A DNA stretch of 64,000 nucleotides from an uncultured Bacillales bacterium (GTDB lineage Bacteria > Bacillota_I > Bacilli_A > RF39 > UBA660): NCBI GenBank assembly GCA_947648915.1, contig CANSPQ010000002.1, forward strand, positions 50-64,049, written 5' to 3'. Position numbers and translations under genes: made by a program. Under the pieces are notes generated by a model. It was not told the origin of the DNA. It was given only the letters and a program-made list of their open reading frames with translations, and searched no databases. Below, in pieces: positions 191 through 9,148 of this stretch; the first letter of the stretch is position 1, and each line of letters begins with the position of its first letter.

Positions 191-1075
191 TCATTTTCTT
201 CTTTTAATAACATCATCTTGTTTTAAATCGCCAATCAATAAACTACTATTGGAATTATGTTGACTAAAATTAGACATAACTAGGTTTTCATCATAGTTAG
301 CGTAACAATACTTACAAAAATGTTTACATGAATTATAAACACCAATATCGACCATTTCTACACATCCGCATTTTCTGGCATTCCATTTTTTATACGTTTT
401 ACCAGTGAGTTGATAAGCACAGGTTTTAGACAAGCACTCCCCTTTTACAAATCCATATTGTGTTAAATTATTTTTCTCAAAACAAGTTTGTACTGTCATT
501 CCATTTTTCTGAGCACTTTCACTAAAAGAAATTCCGATTTCCTTATAATCTTCTGTTGTAAACCCCCTTGCTTTTAAAATAGACCCGTTTTTTCTTACAT
601 TTTGATAATCATCGATGAAAGAGACAATAATGTTTTTCACAAATCCATTTAATAAAGAACACATATGACCAAATGCTTTTTTATGATAAGAAATGTCATA
701 TTGTTCACTTAGAAAAATAGGATCGTAACGGATGAATAAATGATCAATCCCAACCATAGTAGATAACTGTTTGATTGCTTCTATGATTTTTCCCTTTGGA
801 GGAACATTGGGTTCAATTTCCTTTAAATAAGGTGTTAATGTTACATGAAAAAGAATTGGTTTATCAATTGATTTTAAATGGTTTAATATTGGAATGGGAT
901 TTTTCGTACAAAACAGAATCGCATCGACATCCTCAAAATAAATCCGGCTAATTTGTTTCGGATAAAAGGGATTCCTAACGTCTACAAATCCTTCTTGATA
1001 TCGTTTCAGAAACCACTCAGAATAAAAAGCCACAATATCTGTTCTACCACTTACATTTAAAATCATATAACACAC
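191..1075 (-). CDS. DUF1848 family protein (GTG start)
   Basis: Full-length resemblance to DUF1848 proteins. The C-terminal Cys cluster CGCVE...CKHFCKYCYANYD is typical of the family. 294 aa. Confidence 0.55.
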   Translation of the reverse strand: MCYMILNVSGRTDIVAFYSEWFLKRYQEGFVDVRNPFYPKQISRIYFEDVDAILFCTKNPIPILNHLKSIDKPILFHVTLTPYLKEIEPNVPPKGKIIEAIKQLSTMVGIDHLFIRYDPIFLSEQYDISYHKKAFGHMCSLLNGFVKNIIVSFIDDYQNVRKNGSILKARGFTTEDYKEIGISFSESAQKNGMTVQTCFEKNNLTQYGFVKGECLSKTCAYQLTGKTYKKWNARKCGCVEMVDIGVYNSCKHFCKYCYANYDENLVMSNFSQHNSNSSLLIGDLKQDDVIKRRK

Positions 1076-2142: not shown

Positions 2143-3411
2143 TTATCTTATCTTTCCTTTTTCTTCTGATAATATCATTCCCAACAACTCTGATTCTGTC
2201 ACTTGGATTACCTTTCCACAACATGGTTTGAAATTTGGATTTCCATAAACAATCCAAATTACATTTTCATTTTTTAAATCTTCTTTGGGCATATTTCCTG
2301 GACCAGGGATTCCATCGGTAAATATAATTTTATTGATTTCTTTTTTTCTTGTGAAAGAACGAACGGCTAAATCCCAGTCTTCTGTCCATGCATACTTATG
2401 TGATTCTTCTGGAATCACAAAATGATCAATATCATCATTTGACTTTATTTCTACCATTTTATAATATTTTTCATTAAAACACCCTACTTTTAATTTGGAA
2501 TGATGTAATATCGGTTTGATTATCCTTAAAAAAGATTTTACTAAATTTAAACTAACTGACCCAGAAACATCAATTAAAACCTCTGTTTCCGCTTCTTCTT
2601 CTAACTCGTCTTCTTCTAATCTATATGCATAATTATTCTCAGCAATGGAACGTCGATTACTCCAAATAATCTCGTCTTTATTGACTTCTCTTCTTAAAAG
2701 AAGTAGCCAATCAATCGCATTATTTTCTTCCCCTATTGTGCCTAATTCATTTTGAATCTTATTTTTTTTCCATTCCTTTAATACTTGTTCTTTTTTCTGC
2801 TTCAAATCTTTTTTGGCTTTTGCAATGCGTTCCTCTCTATTTTCTCTAAATTCTTGTTTTTCATCAATTTTTGTATCTGGCTTTTGAACCTGATCTTCAC
2901 CTGTTTCCATTTTTTCAAAAGCTTCTTTCCAAAGACTATGGTCATCCCTCCAAGTGGATTTTGTATAATCCCCATCCTCATTTAACAATTTTTCATATAA
3001 TTGTTCTGCTGTATAGGATAACGCATCTGGATAAGTAAAATAATCTTCTTCTATCTGAAATCCATCTCTTACCAAATTGGCATTGATGATTGCATCGGTA
3101 GCTTCATTCCATACGTCTAAATCTTTCTTTTTGCCATCCTTTTTTAAACGGTACATATGAAGAAATTGCATATGCATAAGCTCATGCGCCAAGAGAAATA
3201 AACGTCCCTCAAGTTCTAAGCTTACAAAATAATCAGGGTCAATCAAAATCTTTTTTCCATCTGTTGCCCCTGTATGATACTTTAAGTGACGATGATATTC
3301 AATTGGTGTAGCTGCAAGTAAACTTGCAAAACGAGGATAGCGAATCATTAGAATATTTTTTGCTTCATTCATTAAATCCATAGACAACTCTCCTAAAATG
3401 CTACAACACAC
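2143..3411 (-). CDS. VWA-like domain protein with N-terminal putative metallopeptidase domain (DUF2201_N/DUF2201 type), partner of AAA_5 ATPase
   Basis: HExxH motif (LAHELMHMQF) in the N-terminal half. The C-terminal half is VWA-like (LIDVSGS). Last gene of the three-gene operon with the ATPase. Confidence 0.6.
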   Translation of the reverse strand: MCCSILGELSMDLMNEAKNILMIRYPRFASLLAATPIEYHRHLKYHTGATDGKKILIDPDYFVSLELEGRLFLLAHELMHMQFLHMYRLKKDGKKKDLDVWNEATDAIINANLVRDGFQIEEDYFTYPDALSYTAEQLYEKLLNEDGDYTKSTWRDDHSLWKEAFEKMETGEDQVQKPDTKIDEKQEFRENREERIAKAKKDLKQKKEQVLKEWKKNKIQNELGTIGEENNAIDWLLLLRREVNKDEIIWSNRRSIAENNYAYRLEEDELEEEAETEVLIDVSGSVSLNLVKSFLRIIKPILHHSKLKVGCFNEKYYKMVEIKSNDDIDHFVIPEESHKYAWTEDWDLAVRSFTRKKEINKIIFTDGIPGPGNMPKEDLKNENVIWIVYGNPNFKPCCGKVIQVTESELLGMILSEEKGKIR

Positions 3412-3773
3412 AATTGATAAAGATTGGGTGCAATATTTTTTAAAGATTCTTTTGATACTACTGTAAAAACAATAATGACATTGGAAGGAATTGAATACCC
3501 CATAAATTCTCTATCTTTGATGAGTCCAATATATTTTTCTTGTTGCGCCATAGTTAATGTATCTATTCTGCGAATGACAAAATACGTTGTTTTTCCATTG
3601 CTAGAAAGTTGTTCCAATTTGGATTTGAAAATGGGATTTCCATAACGAAACAAATAGGTATCTTCTATACTAGCATCCATATATGCAGTTTGTCCTAAGT
3701 TTTGATACATACAATCCAGTATAATAGCACCAGTCGCACTCCCTCGTTGTAACTCTACTAATTCCTGATTCAT
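3393..3773 (-). CDS. hypothetical small protein (operon member between ATPase and VWA protein)
   Basis: 126-aa ORF. Translationally coupled: ATGA overlap with the upstream ATPase and an overlap with the downstream VWA gene. Confidence 0.4.
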   Translation of the reverse strand: MNQELVELQRGSATGAIILDCMYQNLGQTAYMDASIEDTYLFRYGNPIFKSKLEQLSSNGKTTYFVIRRIDTLTMAQQEKYIGLIKDREFMGYSIPSNVIIVFTVVSKESLKNIAPNLYQLCVVAF

Positions 3774-5530
3774 CTACTTTTTCCAACTCCCTCTATTTGT
3801 CCCTTTTTCAGTTCTAATTGTTGTAATTCACTCATTTTCAACATCCGCATCTCATCATTTCCAACCCATAGTAAATCATATAATTCACGATATTCAGGAT
3901 CACAATATTGCTGAACAAATTCTCTACAAGTACCAACTTGATGCTCATCAGCTAACAACAATGCCACCATAGAAGCATATCGCTCATTAGTGTTTCTTGG
4001 TAAATCTGCTTGGGTATAGGTTTTATTAACGACTTGTTCTATGGTAAGTGTTGGAATATTATAATAATTCAAAAATTCTCTTGCCCAAGATTCACGCAAT
4101 TTGGTTGCGATAGACATTTGTAGTAAATGTTCTACATCTTTGCCCACATATTTGCCTTCCACTAAATTTTTTTCAAAGGCACATAGTGTATGAGAAATGG
4201 ATGTCCACCCTCTTGGATCATTTGTTCTACCACGACAACCATTACGATCTTTATCCCTTTCCCCTACCTCTGGTTCTTCATAAAAGTATCCAATCGAGGA
4301 AATATCTTCTCTTCTTTGATTTTCCATATATTTTGAAACAATATATCCAATCACAGAAGGATGTAACTGATTCGGAATTGCATATTCATAAATCCATTCT
4401 GAAACACGTGGTTCCATATCTAATATATGATCAAATCTCTTTTCTAGTGGTTCTGCTAATTCCTCGGCAACACTAGAATATTTTTGCGGATTTCCAGTTG
4501 CCACAATCACTGTATTTTCTGGCAATTTTAATCCACTTCCCGTTTCTACAATCCGATTCAAAACGAGGGTATAGACAAGTGATTGTACCACTGGTTTTAC
4601 ATTCAAAAGTTCATCTAATAATATTACAATTTTTTCATTACTTGTCTTTGATCTTTCATATATGGTATCCGCAAGGTCATATAAGCTTTGAATATTACTT
4701 GCAACCATTTTCTTTTCTTCTTCCGTCGCACAATTTAAAATCGCTTGCTTGGCAAAATTAGGCGGAATATTTTGACCTGTTTGAAAGTTACTAGAACCAA
4801 CCACCTTCTCAGGAAGCATATTGTTGGTCAATTTGAGATAGATTAAATTTGGATATAATTTACGAATACGCTCTGTCTTTCCAATTCCAGATGGCCCTCT
4901 TAATAGTACGGATTCCCCTGCTTCAATCCAATTTTGAATCATTTCGGTATATGTCATTTTTCTTCTCTCAGATGCGATTGTGGTATCTGGATTGAGATTT
5001 TGAAGTCTTGTTTTACGAATACTGGTATCGGTATCAGGTATCAGGTAATCCACTTTATTTGTCTGTATTTCTTTTGCAAAACAGTTATCCATATATTTTT
5101 TGATATCTGTCTTTGCAAAATCTCCCTTATAATTTCTAATCTGATTGAATTGCACACCTGCAAACAAAATGGTTTTAGGAAGCACAATGTCATTCTTTTT
5201 ATCTACGAACCAACGAACTTTCTCTACTTTCACCCAATATGGTTTCCCGATTTTTATTTTTGCTCCTGTTGAAAGCACCTTTCCCGCCCCATTTTTATCA
5301 CCCAAAAAGCGAATATATCTTTCTTGCATATACTCGTACTCAATAAATTCACGTGCCTGAAAAGGCATGTCATAATCATCATAAGCAACAGAATCTGTTG
5401 TATATTTGTTTCCTGTTTCCTTCATACCAATTTGGTATGTATTTTCCAATTGTCTTGCAAAATTATCTTCCACTGCAGTTTGTGGAAATTCTCCAAAATC
5501 AACTTCAAGAAGTCCACTTGCCCCTCTCAC
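3770..5530 (-). CDS. AAA+ ATPase, AAA_5 (MoxR/McrB-like) family. In frame with the upstream DGR target ORF.
   Basis: Walker A LLRGPSGIGKT. Walker B/sensor ILLDELLNVKP (DEINRAP-like). ATGNPQ arginine-finger region. The assigned start is a GTG with no convincing RBS. Confidence 0.7.
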   Translation of the reverse strand: MRGASGLLEVDFGEFPQTAVEDNFARQLENTYQIGMKETGNKYTTDSVAYDDYDMPFQAREFIEYEYMQERYIRFLGDKNGAGKVLSTGAKIKIGKPYWVKVEKVRWFVDKKNDIVLPKTILFAGVQFNQIRNYKGDFAKTDIKKYMDNCFAKEIQTNKVDYLIPDTDTSIRKTRLQNLNPDTTIASERRKMTYTEMIQNWIEAGESVLLRGPSGIGKTERIRKLYPNLIYLKLTNNMLPEKVVGSSNFQTGQNIPPNFAKQAILNCATEEEKKMVASNIQSLYDLADTIYERSKTSNEKIVILLDELLNVKPVVQSLVYTLVLNRIVETGSGLKLPENTVIVATGNPQKYSSVAEELAEPLEKRFDHILDMEPRVSEWIYEYAIPNQLHPSVIGYIVSKYMENQRREDISSIGYFYEEPEVGERDKDRNGCRGRTNDPRGWTSISHTLCAFEKNLVEGKYVGKDVEHLLQMSIATKLRESWAREFLNYYNIPTLTIEQVVNKTYTQADLPRNTNERYASMVALLLADEHQVGTCREFVQQYCDPEYRELYDLLWVGNDEMRMLKMSELQQLELKKGQIEGVGKSR

Positions 5531-5571
5531 TTCGTTCGAGGAGATGGAAGAGATAGAAGAGTATGGTAAAG

Positions 5572-5645
5572 CTGGACGGGCTCCTACATCCCGTTTCCTA
5601 ACATCATCTTAGTCCTCATAACCGTCATCATTAACGACGCGCGCG
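5572..5645 (-). repeat. DGR variable repeat (VR)
   Basis: 74 bp, 65/74 identical to the TR at 7173-7246. All 9 mismatches are at TR adenines on the minus (RT) strand. The GC-rich 3' end GGAGCCCGTCCAG is identical in both copies (IMH-like). Confidence 0.85.
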
Positions 5646-5854
5646 TCATTATCTCCATCTGAAGTTTTTGTCCACCACCAACCAGTACGGTCTTTTAATG
5701 TACTTCCTTCACTTGTATATGTACTATCTGCTACATAACCACCTAATAAAATAGCAAAATCCGAAATTGCACATTTGGTTCCATACAATTTAAATATATC
5801 TAATTGTTTATCACCAAATATTTGTTCTGTTTCTAAAAAAGTAAAATCTAACAT
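5609..5854 (-). CDS. DGR target protein (81 aa) with C-terminal VR. Its stop codon lies inside the VR.
   Basis: RBS GGTGGTGA 5 nt before the ATG. The C-terminal codons AAT GAT GAC GGT TAT GAG GAC correspond to TR AAT AAA AAC GGT AAT AAG AAC. C-terminal signature GWWWTKT...ARVVN. Confidence 0.7.
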   Translation of the reverse strand: MLDFTFLETEQIFGDKQLDIFKLYGTKCAISDFAILLGGYVADSTYTSEGSTLKDRTGWWWTKTSDGDNDARVVNDDGYED

Positions 5855-5916
5855 AGTAAATCACCACCTATATCATAACATAATTTTGCTCATTGTAGAC
5901 ACCTTTTGTCATTTTT

Positions 5917-6972
5917 TTACAGTTTATTTATATCTTTCAACAAAATTGCCTGTCTAAGAAAACACTCGCTTGTATTTTTTATATGATTGTAAAAAGCATT
6001 TTTTCGAATCAATACATAAGTTTCATCGACAATTCCCTTTTGATATAATTTATTCATTGTTTTTAAATGTTTTTTCATTCTCTGTTTCGAAGAATATCGC
6101 AATTTCATAATCAATTTCCCACTAGGTGTAACAATATGTCGATATCCTAAAAAATCAATTCCATTTTTGACCATACCAATTTGTGTTTTTTGATTGAGTT
6201 CTAATTTTAACTCATTATGGCATATGCTTTCTATTTCATTCTTGCAATATTTTAAAAACTTTTTGTCCTCATGAATTAAAATCATATCATCCATATACCT
6301 TACATAATACTTTACTTGCAGCACCTCTTTGATGTATCGGTCTACTACATTTAAATAATAAAGGGCAAACCACTGACTCGATTGATTTCCAAGAGGCAAA
6401 CCCTTATTGGCAGCATTTGGTTGCTCCTGAATTAACTTTCGAATCATCCACATTTCATCTTCTGAAAAGTCAATCTTTTCAAGTAAGGTGATTAAAATTT
6501 GATGATCAATACTTGGAAAGTATTTATGAATATCACATTTCAAAAAATAAAATTGATTATTTCTTACTTTCCTATATGTCTCTCCTAAAAATTGATGTAG
6601 CCGATTAATTGCAAACGTAGTACCTTTTCCTTTTCGGCAAGCACAATTATCATAGATCAATTTCTTTTCTATTTTTGGTTTTAAACAAACATCGCAAAAG
6701 CAGCGAATCACCACTCTGTCTTTAAACGGCAAAGCTTCTATTAAACGCTCTTTTGGTTCATAAATATAAAATATTTTATAAGAACCCAATTGATATTTAC
6801 GCTTATAAATATCTTGCATTAACTCATGTATATAAACAGCCAAATTGGTCTCAAACCGAATCACTTCTCCTTTGTGTTGTTTGGATTTTCGGCAATTTTG
6901 ATATGCTTCATATAAGTTTTCAAATGTAAAAATTTCTTTTAAATTCATAAATACTCCCCAAAAAAGAAACAC
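5917..6972 (-). CDS. DGR reverse transcriptase
   Basis: RT motifs, including YxDD (YVRYMDDMIL). Motif 4 reads GLPLGNQSSQWFALYYLN, the DGR-specific [IL]GxxxSQ form rather than the group II/retron SP form. 351 aa, the usual DGR RT size. Confidence 0.85.
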   Translation of the reverse strand: MFLFWGVFMNLKEIFTFENLYEAYQNCRKSKQHKGEVIRFETNLAVYIHELMQDIYKRKYQLGSYKIFYIYEPKERLIEALPFKDRVVIRCFCDVCLKPKIEKKLIYDNCACRKGKGTTFAINRLHQFLGETYRKVRNNQFYFLKCDIHKYFPSIDHQILITLLEKIDFSEDEMWMIRKLIQEQPNAANKGLPLGNQSSQWFALYYLNVVDRYIKEVLQVKYYVRYMDDMILIHEDKKFLKYCKNEIESICHNELKLELNQKTQIGMVKNGIDFLGYRHIVTPSGKLIMKLRYSSKQRMKKHLKTMNKLYQKGIVDETYVLIRKNAFYNHIKNTSECFLRQAILLKDINKL

Positions 6973-7172
6973 CCCATATAACGCCCAAAGAATGAATTCA
7001 TTCGTTGTTTGTGTGAGTGTTTATATATTTTTTCCATCGCATCTAAGACTTCTCTTTTAGCAATTAGAAAAGAAGAAAATTCCTTCACCTTACAATACAG
7101 GTTTATTTTACCAAAAATAAACTTCTCTCATCTGTTTTCTAGATTTTTCTTAAAATCTCTTCAAAAGTGAAT

Positions 7173-7246
7173 CTGGACGGGCTCCTACATCCCGTTTTCT
7201 AACATTATTTTAGTTCTTATTACCGTTTTTATTAACGACGCGCGCG
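7173..7246 (-). repeat. DGR template repeat (TR)
   Basis: The adenine-rich copy on the RT strand: ...AAT AAA AAC GGT AAT AAG AAC TAA AAT AAT GTT AGA AAA CGG... Located between the avd-like ORF and the RT. Confidence 0.85.
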
Positions 7247-7325
7247 AAGAAAAACAACGGGGCCTAAAATAAAAACGCACAAATGTAAATTTTCTCCTTA
7301 ATTAAAGATTTTTCAATCTAAAATC

Positions 7326-7910
7326 CTAACCTTTCTTACGCCATCTTTCATCATCACTCTTTTTCCAAGCAGCGATTAAATTAATGGCTTCTGCTAATTG
7401 AATGGATATTTGTTTATACTGTTTTTTCAAAATACAATTACAACTCTCCGCAATCATCGCAACATATCCCAATAATTTTAGCTTTACAATAGTCGCTTTT
7501 TGAAATTGTACTCTTATCATCTTATTTTCTTGAGAGTCCATTCTCGTCAAATTAGCTTGCAACAACAATTCCAATGTATCCAAACAATAGTTCTGCATTC
7601 TATTTACAAATACACCTCTAAACTTTTTAGGAGATTTTTCTGTCACTGCGATTACGTAAGCACCCAACTTCTTTACAACCGTAATTACTATTAAATCATT
7701 TGCATTAAAGGGAATCTTAGAAATTCTTTCCAATTCCTGATCTTCTATTTCTAATTTTTCCCTTAAAGCATTTATATTTATTTTTTGTTCATTTACACTC
7801 GCAAGTGCTTTTTTGATTGCAACTGCATCATCTATACTATTTACACTTGTTTCATATTGTTCTACTTGCTTTGGTATTTTTAAACTACCATTTCTATTTA
7901 CCTGCAGCAC
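7326..7910 (-). CDS. Avd-like accessory variability determinant (four-helix-bundle protein), probably with an N-terminal extension or a later non-ATG start
   Basis: The C-terminal ~120 aa align loosely with the Bordetella phage bAvd pattern (Y..A...SPKKFRGVF..., LDTLELLLQAN). Basic, helical. Immediately upstream of the TR. Confidence 0.5.
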   Translation of the reverse strand: MLQVNRNGSLKIPKQVEQYETSVNSIDDAVAIKKALASVNEQKININALREKLEIEDQELERISKIPFNANDLIVITVVKKLGAYVIAVTEKSPKKFRGVFVNRMQNYCLDTLELLLQANLTRMDSQENKMIRVQFQKATIVKLKLLGYVAMIAESCNCILKKQYKQISIQLAEAINLIAAWKKSDDERWRKKG

Positions 7911-8023
7911 TACATCACAACTCCTAGTTGGTATTATAGCACAAGTTATTATTTTTTTAAAATACCTAGATTGTTATAATTTAAAGAATAAATTTTAACA
8001 AAATATACAAAAACAATATTTAT

Positions 8024-8048
8024 TAAAAAAAAATCACATTTCTGCGAC
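8024..8048 (-). terminator. intrinsic terminator hairpin (GTCGCAGAAATGTGAT + U9) of the TCGCAGAAATGCGA family
   Basis: Stem-loop with G-U wobbles only on the minus-strand RNA, followed by T9. Confidence 0.4.
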
Positions 8049-8113
8049 AATTTTGTTACAGATTTTTAAAATCTGTAAGGTTATTTTTTTCTTTGTAAAA
8101 TAAGGTAAAATCA

Positions 8114-8142
8114 TTTACTAATAGTCCAATAAATAGTATGAT
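8114..8142 (+). promoter_or_regulatory. sigma-A-like promoter for the small peptide A mRNA
   Basis: TTTACT-17 bp-TATGAT. Confidence 0.4.
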
Positions 8143-8217
8143 GAATATAGGAATACAAGACTTTGTTGGGTTTTTGCCGAACTTCCATTCAATTGGATAG
8201 AGGGGAGGCTTGAGATT

Positions 8218-8310
8218 ATGAAAAAAAGAGTTTTTATTTTGAAAATTCTAAATAACATTATTCTCATTTTGTTCCTTCTACTTTTATTAGTAGCCGAGAT
8301 AAAGAAATAA
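8218..8310 (+). CDS. 30-aa hydrophobic peptide (type I toxin-like) MKKRVFILKILNNIILILFLLLLLVAEIKK
   Basis: Strong RBS GAGGGGAGG 7 nt upstream. Single TM-like core with a charged C-tail. A paralogous module lies at 22653. Confidence 0.45.
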   Translation: MKKRVFILKILNNIILILFLLLLLVAEIKK

Positions 8311-8411
8311 CACCCTAATTCAGTGAATTAAGGTGCAAACCAATTTGGTAAGCACTCAACTTTGCAAGAAGTCAAGTGTTCCATTTTTATTGTATGGAAT
8401 TTCTTCCATCT
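8300..8411 (-). ncRNA. putative cis-antisense sRNA (type I antitoxin-like), module A
   Basis: Transcribed from TTTACA-17-TATAAT. Begins with the hairpin ATGGAAGAAATTCCAT. Ends at the hairpin 8311-8335 plus UUAUUUCUUUAU, which overlaps the last codons of the peptide ORF. Confidence 0.45.
8311..8335 (-). terminator. 12-bp hairpin (CACCTTAATTCA/TGAATTAGGGTG) plus U-run. Terminator of the antisense sRNA overlapping the peptide ORF stop.
   Basis: Seen in sequence. The U-run is present on the minus strand only. Confidence 0.5.
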
Positions 8412-8417
8412 ACATAC

Positions 8418-8446
8418 ATTATAATATATTATTTTGACTTTGTAAA
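8418..8446 (-). promoter_or_regulatory. near-consensus sigma-A promoter (TTTACA-17-TATAAT) on the minus strand
   Basis: Plus-strand tgtaaa at 8441-8446 and attata at 8418-8423. A conserved paralog lies at 22835-22863. Confidence 0.5.
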
Positions 8447-8492
8447 CTAGTTTGCCAAATTTTTCTTATAAAATAACATGCTAAATTGGAGC

Positions 8493-8515
8493 AAAAGAAA
8501 ATCGCATTTCTGCGA
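8493..8515 (-). terminator. intrinsic terminator TCGCAGAAATGCGA + U-rich, downstream of the 8516-9148 gene
   Basis: 6-bp stem, GAAA loop, then UUUUCUUUUG. Confidence 0.5.
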
Positions 8516-9148
8516 CTAATTTAGTACCTTTTGTTTTTGATTATCTTTTATTGCACCTGCTATTGTACAATAGCAATTTTTATTACCATTATAGAAAATT
8601 CTAAATAATTGTGATATCATTTGTGGTGAAGAAATACGAGTCGTATGAATCATACCATTTTCAATTGTTTGCTTTTCCGTTATTGTAAAATTTTCAAAAT
8701 CTTGAAGTAAAAATATAAGTTCTGCTAAATAGTTGTCTATCATATTAGAACATATTTTATTAAGTTCTTTCTCTAGATATATACTAGCCTCATTTATAAA
8801 TGTCATTTGAGAAAATTCTTCATCACAACTAGAACAATCCATAACAGGTATTAAAACACTTATTCTTCCTGCTAATCTTATTAATTCTTCACGTTCCAAA
8901 CCAAACAGTTTTTTACACGCATAATTGTTCATTGGTATTTGTTTGGTTTTATAATATTTGGAAAAAATTAGGATAATATTATTTCTTAATTCTGTAATAA
9001 TCTCTGTTTCATTTTTACCAATGACACTTAATGGTTCAATTCCTGGTTGAAATAAACACATATTAACATTTAATTCTGAATTGAGTATTTCTAGTATATT
9101 TTTCAAAATTTTAGTCTGACCTATAACTTGTTCACTTATTTCTGCCAT
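8516..9148 (-). CDS. hypothetical protein
   Basis: 210-aa ORF with no recognisable motifs. Confidence 0.4.
   Translation of the reverse strand: MAEISEQVIGQTKILKNILEILNSELNVNMCLFQPGIEPLSVIGKNETEIITELRNNIILIFSKYYKTKQIPMNNYACKKLFGLEREELIRLAGRISVLIPVMDCSSCDEEFSQMTFINEASIYLEKELNKICSNMIDNYLAELIFLLQDFENFTITEKQTIENGMIHTTRISSPQMISQLFRIFYNGNKNCYCTIAGAIKDNQKQKVLN

Follow-up and report, generated by a model that had tools for sequence, protein, structure and literature searches.

A chromosomal diversity-generating retroelement with an in-frame stop codon in its template repeat

The prototype of the diversity-generating retroelements (DGRs) is that of the Bordetella phage BPP-1, in which the elements are ordered mtd-avd-TR-brt (TR, template repeat; brt, the gene of the reverse transcriptase, RT). 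Among DGR architectures the core order avd-TR-RT, designated B1, is the most frequent (Wu et al. 2018, PMC5758913). The organisation with the variable repeat (VR) at the C-terminus of the target protein is conserved (Roux et al.), and targets with an N-terminal or internal VR were found for 3 of 372 DGRs (Wu et al. 2018, PMC5758913). Published work holds that a stop 'can never' arise from AAY codons (Y, pyrimidine), and that codons prone to become stops are strongly depleted in natural TRs (bioRxiv 10.1101/2025.03.24.644984, 10.1101/2024.11.15.621889). DGRs have also been connected with ATPases. Dore et al. 2024 (PMC10907252) report, after Kaur et al. 2020, that DGRs diversify the sensors of the MoxR-AAA/vWA 'ternary conflict systems' in multicellular bacteria, and cite ATPases of the CLec-AAA type (CLec, C-type lectin) as DGR targets in bacteria belonging to the candidate phyla radiation (CPR). 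Here we describe a DGR in a stretch of 64,000 nt, hereafter the window, from contig CANSPQ010000002.1 of an uncultured Bacillales bacterium. A DGR in a gut Firmicute is by itself ordinary. This one departs from the published descriptions that we found in three respects: its TR contains an in-frame stop codon, its VR is N-terminal, and its variable domain forms a direct fusion with a MoxR/McrB-like ATPase that has a DUF2201 partner.

All features of the cassette lie on the minus strand of the window. Listed in the 5' to 3' direction of that strand, they are:

7326..7910, minus strand: Avd-like accessory gene, 194 aa, of which residues 75-185 form the Avd-like helical part
7173..7246, minus strand: TR, 74 nt with 28 adenines, reading ARVVNKNGNKN*NNVRKRDVGARP in the frame of the target
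7210..7212, minus strand: TAA in the TR, in the target register, with both adenines mutable
6960..7176, minus strand: predicted structured RNA 3' of the TR, the spacer-like part of the DGR RNA, within about 215 nt of non-coding sequence
5917..6948, minus strand: DGR reverse transcriptase, 343 aa from ATG 6948, in an open reading frame (ORF) that is open up to GTG 6972
3770..5854, minus strand: target gene, 694 codons, interrupted at codon 82 in the window genome
5609-5854, minus strand: 81-aa ORF, the front part of the target gene, its end spanned by the second repeat copy
5572..5645, minus strand: VR, the second repeat copy, with variation actually seen only in 5594-5632 and a GC-rich 3' end equal to that of the TR
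5609..5611, minus strand: TAA in the VR, unchanged from the TR, which splits the target into ORFs of 81 and 586 aa
3770-5530, minus strand: 586-aa ORF, the remainder of the target, in the same frame as the 81-aa ORF

The locus resembles the BPP-1 DGR in its Avd-like protein, its AAY-rich TR, its Brt-like RT (SQ motif and YMDD), the adenine-specific differences between TR and VR, the common GC-rich 3' end after which the flanks diverge, and a structured RNA after the TR that pairs with the TR 3' end. Unlike the phage-borne BPP-1 element, that of the window is chromosomal, and its TR measures 74 nt against 134 nt. The target is found downstream of the RT with the VR near its 5' end, whereas the BPP-1 VR lies at the 3' end. 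Further differences are the lack of a detectable hairpin after the VR, an N-terminal extension of 75 aa in the Avd-like protein, and a TR that holds, besides the in-frame TAA, the stop-prone codons AAA (twice), AAG and AGA. A preliminary description of this locus, made from the letters of the window only, called the gene order atypical. This was overstated as far as the core order is concerned, but the downstream position of an N-terminal VR is indeed unusual. As in the targets with N-terminal or internal VRs described by Wu et al., the VR and the end that resembles an initiation of mutagenic homing (IMH) site lie inside the coding sequence and are constrained by it; here that end encodes G-A-R-P-A-L.

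Alignment of the two 74-nt repeats reproduced the coordinates and the counts of the preliminary description: there are 9 mismatches, and all 9 are adenines in the TR, changed to G in seven cases and to T in two. With 28 adenines among the 74 bases of the TR, nine mismatches placed at random would be limited to A with a probability of 6e-5. The repeats share a 22-nt 3' end (CGGGATGTAGGAGCCCGTCCAG), for which the TR and the VR are the only sites in the 64-kb window and no occurrence is expected by chance. The IMH-like sequence GGAGCCCGTCCAG, which had been noticed before, is identical in both copies and is followed by ATTCAC at the TR and by CTTTAC at the VR; the TR 3' flank CCAGATTCAC is kept in all cassettes. 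Differences at TR adenines were also observed between the TR and VR of about 20 related loci. A second VR, sought across the window, was not found.

In the frame of the target the TR contains the codons AAT AAA AAC GGT AAT AAG AAC TAA AAT AAT GTT AGA AAA, and it translates as A R V V N K N G N K N * N N V R K R D V G A R P. The preliminary description quoted the first seven of these codons correctly but missed the TAA that comes next. The 16 possible outcomes of mutagenesis at this codon are Ser (four), stop (three), Tyr, Cys, Leu and Phe (two each) and Trp (one). The VR of the window retains the TAA unchanged; the stop codon in the target is templated by the TR. When positions 5854-3770 are read in one frame, 694 codons result, of which TAA 5609-5611, inside the VR, is the single stop. 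The true target is this 694-codon gene, with an N-terminal variable domain and an AAA_5 ATPase domain, the 81-aa ORF being only its front, which exists because the templated TAA interrupts the VR. A search with the read-through protein returned 1474 homologs. The best of them span 98-100% of the query with lengths of 690-740 aa, and among those listed more than 100 are single, uninterrupted proteins of this length. Their N-termini follow the pattern ...GWWWTKT..DGDNDARVV-(17 residues)-GARPALPYSS, in which the stretch DARVV-x17-GARPAL is hypervariable, even between otherwise near-identical proteins. An uninterrupted 694-aa allele is present in the same species. The preliminary description had put the VR at the 3' end of an 81-aa target; in the present analysis that ORF ends inside the VR, which runs 37 nt beyond the TAA with three of the nine adenine-site differences after the stop.

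Stops in the TR turned out to be a recurrent trait of the family to which this cassette belongs. Ten related genome loci with paired TRs and VRs have an in-frame stop in the TR (related loci carry the prefix L): TAA at position 10 (window, L001, L005), TGA at position 10 (L073, L020), TAA at position 4 (L004, L025, L040, L057) and TAA at position 18 (L030). The VR is closed in six of these ten, always exactly at the stop codon of the TR, and in the remaining four the VR codon is now TGG, TCG, TGC or TGT. Stop-free TRs, on the other hand, are accompanied by 12 VRs (9 loci), none of which is closed by a stop. When metagenome contigs were scanned for the VR pattern, 47 VRs were obtained, two with stops; for one of these (L120) the TR is on the same contig and has a stop at the same position. 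In-frame TR stops occur at five or more different positions or lineages in the family.

The codon at position 10 of the TR is TGG, TGA, TAA, TAC or AAC across the family: TAA in L001, L005 and L123, TGA in L073 and L020, TAC in L006 and L067, and TGG in L004, L025 and L057. In the wider superfamily position 10 is usually Trp and position 4 usually aromatic. The simplest reading of the alignments is that the TR stops represent Trp or aromatic codons with G replaced by A. Substitution of A for G is the sole route by which a Trp codon becomes mutable by adenine mutagenesis. The distribution outside the family was assessed in a sample from IMG/VR, comprising 80 loci with related RTs, TR/VR pairs in 63 and about 55 loci outside the family with a reliable frame. 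One of these approximately 55 unrelated DGRs has a TR stop (L154, TAG in the TR versus TGG in the VR), whereas L123 is a member of the window cassette family with TAA at position 10 of the TR and TAC in the VR. In L154, a phage-type DGR on an IMG/VR contig (TR 5688-5798, VR 5196-5306), the stop is located at the Trp of a GGxW motif. Judged from these sequences, TR stops look rare in DGRs generally and common in the window cassette family.

The TR of the window does not display the AAY bias and stop avoidance of natural TRs. Because AAA, AAG and AGA can also become stops, the model gives a probability of 0.30-0.42, at 0.33-0.5 substitution per adenine, that a single homing event leaves the whole VR open. 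We rejected a suppressor tRNA or an altered genetic code for TAA: the window contains only Arg, Met and Leu tRNAs, and TAA is a normal terminator, which ends 27 of its 51 large ORFs.

Four alleles have exactly the TR of the window, namely those of the window itself, L001 (a 96%-related genome), L076 and L078. The comparison of these strains bore out the confinement to adenines, with 45 of 48 mismatches at TR adenines and 22 of the 28 adenines changed at least once. The three others are two of the 11 changes in L001 (2519-2600; GGT to GGG, AAG to AAT) and one in L078 (GGT to GTT), and indicate either that bases other than A change at a low rate or that point mutations followed homing. At the stop site the same-species alleles are TAA (window), TAG (L001), TTC (L076) and TGT (L078), and the VRs differ among these four and P0128. 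L001 and L076 are identical over the 74 codons before and the 603 codons after the VR (dS = 0), and despite this identity the VR is closed by TAG in L001 and open (TTC) in L076. Codon 82 is likewise the end of P0128, from the same protein cluster, and of L077, which is more distant; the residues that precede it are different. Closed alleles thus make up four of the six sampled in the window clade (closed: TAA, TAG, TAA and P0128, of which the codon was not seen; open: TTC and TGT).

Two side observations on VRs should be mentioned. One VR (L105:263-341, minus strand) equals the N-rich TR sequence NDNGNRNNNNVNKRNGG, with no adenine changed, and eight different contigs from human gut (among L079-L119) have the VR allele DGTGSTDYRRVYNRSGG in common, which suggests a widespread clone or long spells without homing.

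Downstream of the stop, lineages that share the TAA have a dN/dS of 0.09-0.18 (586-603 codons); for codons 1-74, upstream of it, pN/pS is 0.13-0.32. The comparisons include TAA-bearing cassettes with RTs that are only 80-83% identical. The RT and Avd genes are intact throughout. The ratios show purifying selection on both sides of the stop, unlike what a gene dead since the TR acquired it would display.

With an Avd-like gene, a TR, a DGR-type RT and a VR with adenine-specific differences the parts list of a DGR is complete, as the preliminary description had stated. In Pfam the RT matches only the generic RVT_1 (64 bits). Its best solved relative in a PDB search is 8ub7_A (E 2.7e-38, residues 12-302), the Brt of Bordetella phage BPP-1, of which the chain fragment is 100% identical to brt, whereas RTs of group II introns and retrons match with E 3e-9 or weaker. 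The motifs LGNQSSQ and YMDD, the basis on which the RT had been assigned to the DGR type, align with GSLTSQ and YMDD of Brt, the second motif reading RYMDD in both proteins. The length of 351 aa given before corresponds to the ORF, which is open to GTG 6972; from the sequence, ATG 6948, preceded by the ribosome-binding site GGGGAG, is the more likely start.

The ORF 5' of the TR had been called avd-like, an assignment with which the family searches agree, although the scores remain under the curated cut-offs: the protein matches Pfam bAvd with E 2.2e-5 (profile positions 5-106 of 107) and NCBIfam DivGenRetAVD with E 1.3e-6 (positions 3-104 of 104). All 13 of the 13 orthologues match both profiles end to end, the best with E 1.8e-10, again under the curated cut-offs. 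An hhalign comparison of the Avd profile with the single BPP-1 Avd sequence was not significant, and a PDB sequence search gave no match. The avd-like gene is found directly 5' of the TR in every related cassette. Its N-terminal extension of about 75 aa (window 7686-7910, minus strand) is kept in all orthologues, down to 46% identity, and is absent from the BPP-1 Avd (128 aa).

An alignment of 13 cassettes shows that the spacer from TR to RT, about 215 nt long, is conserved; for this alignment RNAalifold predicts 53 pairs, 18 of them with compensatory changes. In the predicted structure the TR end and its flank CCAGATTCACTT pair with AAGGTGAAGG, four hairpins then follow, and the last of these is succeeded by a T-run just ahead of the ribosome-binding site of the RT. 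An Rfam scan of 5000-8600 returned no relevant family. We presume, by analogy with BPP-1, that the spacer RNA would position the TR end for priming.

The target protein can be divided into a variable domain (residues ~1-105), a beta-rich domain (~116-260), an AAA_5 domain (~310-480; Walker A GPSGIGKT) and a helical C-terminal region. The AAA_5 match exceeds the Pfam cut-off, and both Walker A and Walker B motifs are present. The AlphaFold (AF2) model of the full-length protein has high confidence at residues 1-100 and 116-260 and low confidence across the ATPase. In this model the predicted local distance difference test (pLDDT) of the N-terminal domain exceeds 90, against 49 (unusable) when the domain is modelled alone, which suggests that the domain packs on the next one. 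The N-terminal domain gives sub-threshold matches to DUF6273 in 15 of 26 members and to Fib_succ_major in 10 of 26; PDB sequence searches with the target profile and the N-terminal-domain profile gave no matches. Its superfamily comprises 1091 clusters at 50% identity, nearly always N-terminal and with varied C-terminal partners, and one member scores above the DUF6273 cut-off. The typical target organisation, a VR at the C-terminus in a C-type-lectin fold, was not observed, the VR being near the target 5' end. Since the target has neither a signal peptide nor a transmembrane region, it is presumably cytoplasmic.

Two genes follow the target:

3393..3773, minus strand: 126-aa protein, the start of which overlaps the target stop (ATGA), kept beside the AAA gene
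2143..3411, minus strand: partner protein of 422 aa, DUF2201_N metallopeptidase-like (HELMH motif) and VWA-like (DVSGSVS, resembling a metal ion-dependent adhesion site, MIDAS)

The 126-aa protein has no family match in Pfam, NCBIfam or PADLOC. The N-terminal part of the partner matches Pfam DUF2201_N with 78.6 bits; the C-terminal half matches the VWA-like domain of DUF2201 end to end, with E 0.016 and under the cut-off, and the DVSGSVS motif was read in the sequence. The DUF2201 gene is found downstream in nearly all related loci, and dozens of metagenome-assembled genomes (MAGs) from gut and rumen have the block avd-TR-RT-[variable domain-AAA]-126 aa-DUF2201 in synteny; they are labelled Bacilli, Clostridia, 'Tenericutes' and Christensenella. 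Many of the Clostridia MAGs have two or three tandem variable-domain-AAA paralogues and one TR (L006, L007, L008, L009, L010, L012, L027 and others); L007 and L008 each contain two VRs that are identical to each other.

By analogy, the target probably makes up, together with the 126-aa protein and the peptidase-like/VWA-like partner, a cytoplasmic ligand-sensing module of the MoxR-VWA type, and possibly a conflict or defence system. We speculate that a ligand would be sensed by the variable domain, with action through the AAA+/VWA pair. The likeness to the ternary conflict systems, as they are portrayed by Dore et al. 2024 (PMC10907252), lies in the coupling of a DGR to a MoxR-like AAA+ protein and a putative vWA-type partner, with a target that is presumably cytoplasmic. 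In the systems described there the variable domain is a C-terminal CLec, often on the vWA protein, whereas in the window it is fused to the N-terminus of the ATPase; the partner in the window is a DUF2201 peptidase-like/VWA-like protein, and the hosts are unicellular gut Firmicutes. Of the VMAP and effector domains that, in that account, mark a VMAP ternary conflict system, we saw none in the operon (VMAP, TIR, trypsin, caspase, cyclase), although no VMAP-specific profile was searched.

Taken together, the locus is very probably a chromosomal avd-TR-RT DGR that both diversifies the N-terminal domain of a 694-codon AAA+ gene and, through a templated TAA, truncates it. By analogy with BPP-1, the TR and the structured 3' RNA would be transcribed, the RT with Avd would make cDNA with misincorporation opposite template adenines, and this cDNA, guided by the GC-rich 3' end that both repeats have, would take the place of the VR some 1.6 kb downstream. 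Homing that leaves TAA, TAG or TGA would truncate the target at codon 82, and the 81-aa product would probably be non-functional. Homing that changes the adenines of the stop would yield Tyr, Cys, Trp, Phe, Leu or Ser, and a full-length sensor-ATPase would become possible. The window allele is of the truncated (off) type. If the stop is an adenine-substituted form of a conserved Trp or aromatic codon, the position would have become diversifiable at the cost of frequent null alleles, and the DGR would both diversify and toggle its target. There is a likeness to phase-variable contingency loci (slipped-strand or invertase), in that on and off alleles occur in otherwise identical strains (L001 versus L076). 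In contrast to those loci, the switch would consist of templated nonsense versus sense codons written by retrohoming. It is even conceivable, though we offer this as a tentative and rather doubtful proposal, that the TR stops are an evolved design instead of damage, providing a mutable Trp or aromatic position together with a null unmutated copy, and hence an on/off switch driven by retrohoming as well as a diversifier of a costly cytoplasmic AAA+/VWA sensor in gut Firmicutes, which might belong to an anti-phage or other conflict system.

Several points weigh against this account. The DGR is genuine, but its recent activity is deduced from differences between assemblies. Under a neutral model with 0.33-0.5 substitution per adenine, a stop at the codon is expected with a probability of 0.42-0.60. 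Because closed alleles are about as common as this model predicts, there is no sign in the sampled sequences that on or off has been selected, and toggling may be a tolerated by-product. A fold of 5480-5600 gave no DNA hairpin or cruciform of the BPP-1 type downstream of the VR (shuffled level, z = 0.05); such a hairpin is not universal among DGRs. PADLOC assigned no defence family to the target, the 126-aa or the DUF2201 protein beyond a weak DolB match.

Other explanations of the interrupted target were considered. A split but functional gene, of which the 586-aa AAA+ part is made alone by re-initiation at or near GTG 5530, and is perhaps constitutive or dominant, seems unlikely; the stop would then cost only the sensor domain and leave a working ATPase module. 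The GTG is present 26 codons after the stop, and such expression would explain selection on the downstream part without open alleles. However, no Shine-Dalgarno-like sequence precedes the GTG, the sequence there being TCCTCGAACGAAGTG; the 74 N-terminal codons are under purifying selection as well, which requires that full-length alleles matter; and the N-terminal domain is modelled with confidence only in the full-length context.

We find it quite improbable that the element is decaying, that is, that a G-to-A change made the Trp codon of the TR a stop, that homing then killed the target and that the locus is now a pseudogene. Such decay would fit the predominance of closed alleles in the window clade, the VR frameshifts in some relatives (L005, L067, P0122), the deletion derivatives without RT and N-terminal domain (L078 and L028, with an IS3 element near the former) and the fact that over half of the candidate DGRs were set aside as inactivated by Wu et al. 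2018 (PMC5758913). Yet the TAA-bearing TR is common to cassettes with considerably diverged RTs, the RT, Avd, N-terminal domain and 586-codon remainder are intact and under purifying selection, and in-frame TR stops arose repeatedly. Moreover, the VRs still change at adenines, and an open allele exists in a strain otherwise identical to a closed one.

That the 81-aa protein with a C-terminal VR is itself the target is scarcely credible: its ORF has a good ribosome-binding site, ends inside the repeat and is reported as a separate protein by gene callers, but the VR and its adenine-site differences continue past the stop, the 586-aa ORF is in frame with it, the listed homologs and a same-species allele are uninterrupted, and the product would lose the conserved G-A-R-P-A-L end of the domain. 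An assembly artefact, in which the TAA of the VR stems from the mixing of TR and VR reads or from a collapsed hypervariable population, can be dismissed with similar assurance: exact stretches are common to TR and VR, metagenome assemblers form chimeras at repeats and the hybrid contig L121 may be such a case, but substitutions specific to the VR flank the TAA at a distance of 3 nt on both sides, the stop recurs at this codon in independent assemblies (window, L001, L077, P0128), and the L001 codon, TAG, differs from the TR sequence.

Some observations concern the history of the cassette. In L078:4700-5010 and L028:5840-6100 the Avd gene is followed directly by a junction (TR 5' flank, VR-like body, VR 3' flank) and then by the AAA gene; both the RT and the variable domain at the N-terminus are deleted. 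L078 (NCBI GCA_948579045.1, the same contig as L082) is of the same species as the window and has an IS3-type transposase nearby; L028 is a distant relative. These junctions look like the product expected from TR x VR direct-repeat recombination, in two unrelated lineages, a hazard built into the gene order avd-TR-RT-target. A reverse hybrid was found in L121:2824-3144, where a full N-terminal domain and VR body run into a TR-type 3' flank (ARPDS...) and then into the RT gene; it may be a duplication product or an assembly chimera via the shared 25-nt repeat end. Between the window (3770-7910) and L005/L077, Avd is 90% and the RT 80-83% identical (aa), and pS is ~0.3 in the N-terminal domain. 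In the AAA part pS is ~0.6 (dS >1); identity falls to 57-59% for the 126-aa and DUF2201 proteins. These values point to a mosaic history, in which the cassette and the variable domain were exchanged more recently, or to a much faster evolution of the ATPase module.

The window is chromosomal; the neighbouring genes encode a prolyl-tRNA synthetase, a pseudouridine synthase, a rhomboid protease and tRNA-Arg. A DUF1848 protein (window 191-1075, minus strand; 291 bits), which also matches the PADLOC model 'RTasDUF1848' (RT-associated DUF1848, DRT systems), neighbours the cassette in L001, L005 and L078 as well, and a 200-aa ORF without family match lies between the DUF1848 and DUF2201 genes. Just upstream of the cassette, two intergenic regions contain a 35-nt direct repeat (8025-8059 and 8493-8527, plus strand; AAAATC[A/G]CATTTCTGCGAC...TAC, 83% identical), which may be a shared operator or promoter element.

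We found no description of an in-frame or TR-templated stop in the literature, our coverage of which is incomplete, so that an earlier mention is possible. The present cassettes are the opposite of the accepted AAY picture: they are conserved, apparently active and under purifying selection, and yet they carry a stop in the TR and, in most of the strains sampled, write it into the target. In practice, DGR pipelines and gene callers divide targets of this kind into a short 'target' plus an ATPase that looks unrelated, or reject them as broken; the preliminary description likewise took the short front part for the target. The association of DGRs with MoxR/VWA systems, so far described for multicellular bacteria and CPR, would be extended to gut Firmicutes, with a rare N-terminal VR. 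Finally, the family offers a tangible example on which to ask whether on/off switching is a further role of DGRs, and how they diversify Trp positions, which are out of the reach of AAY codons.

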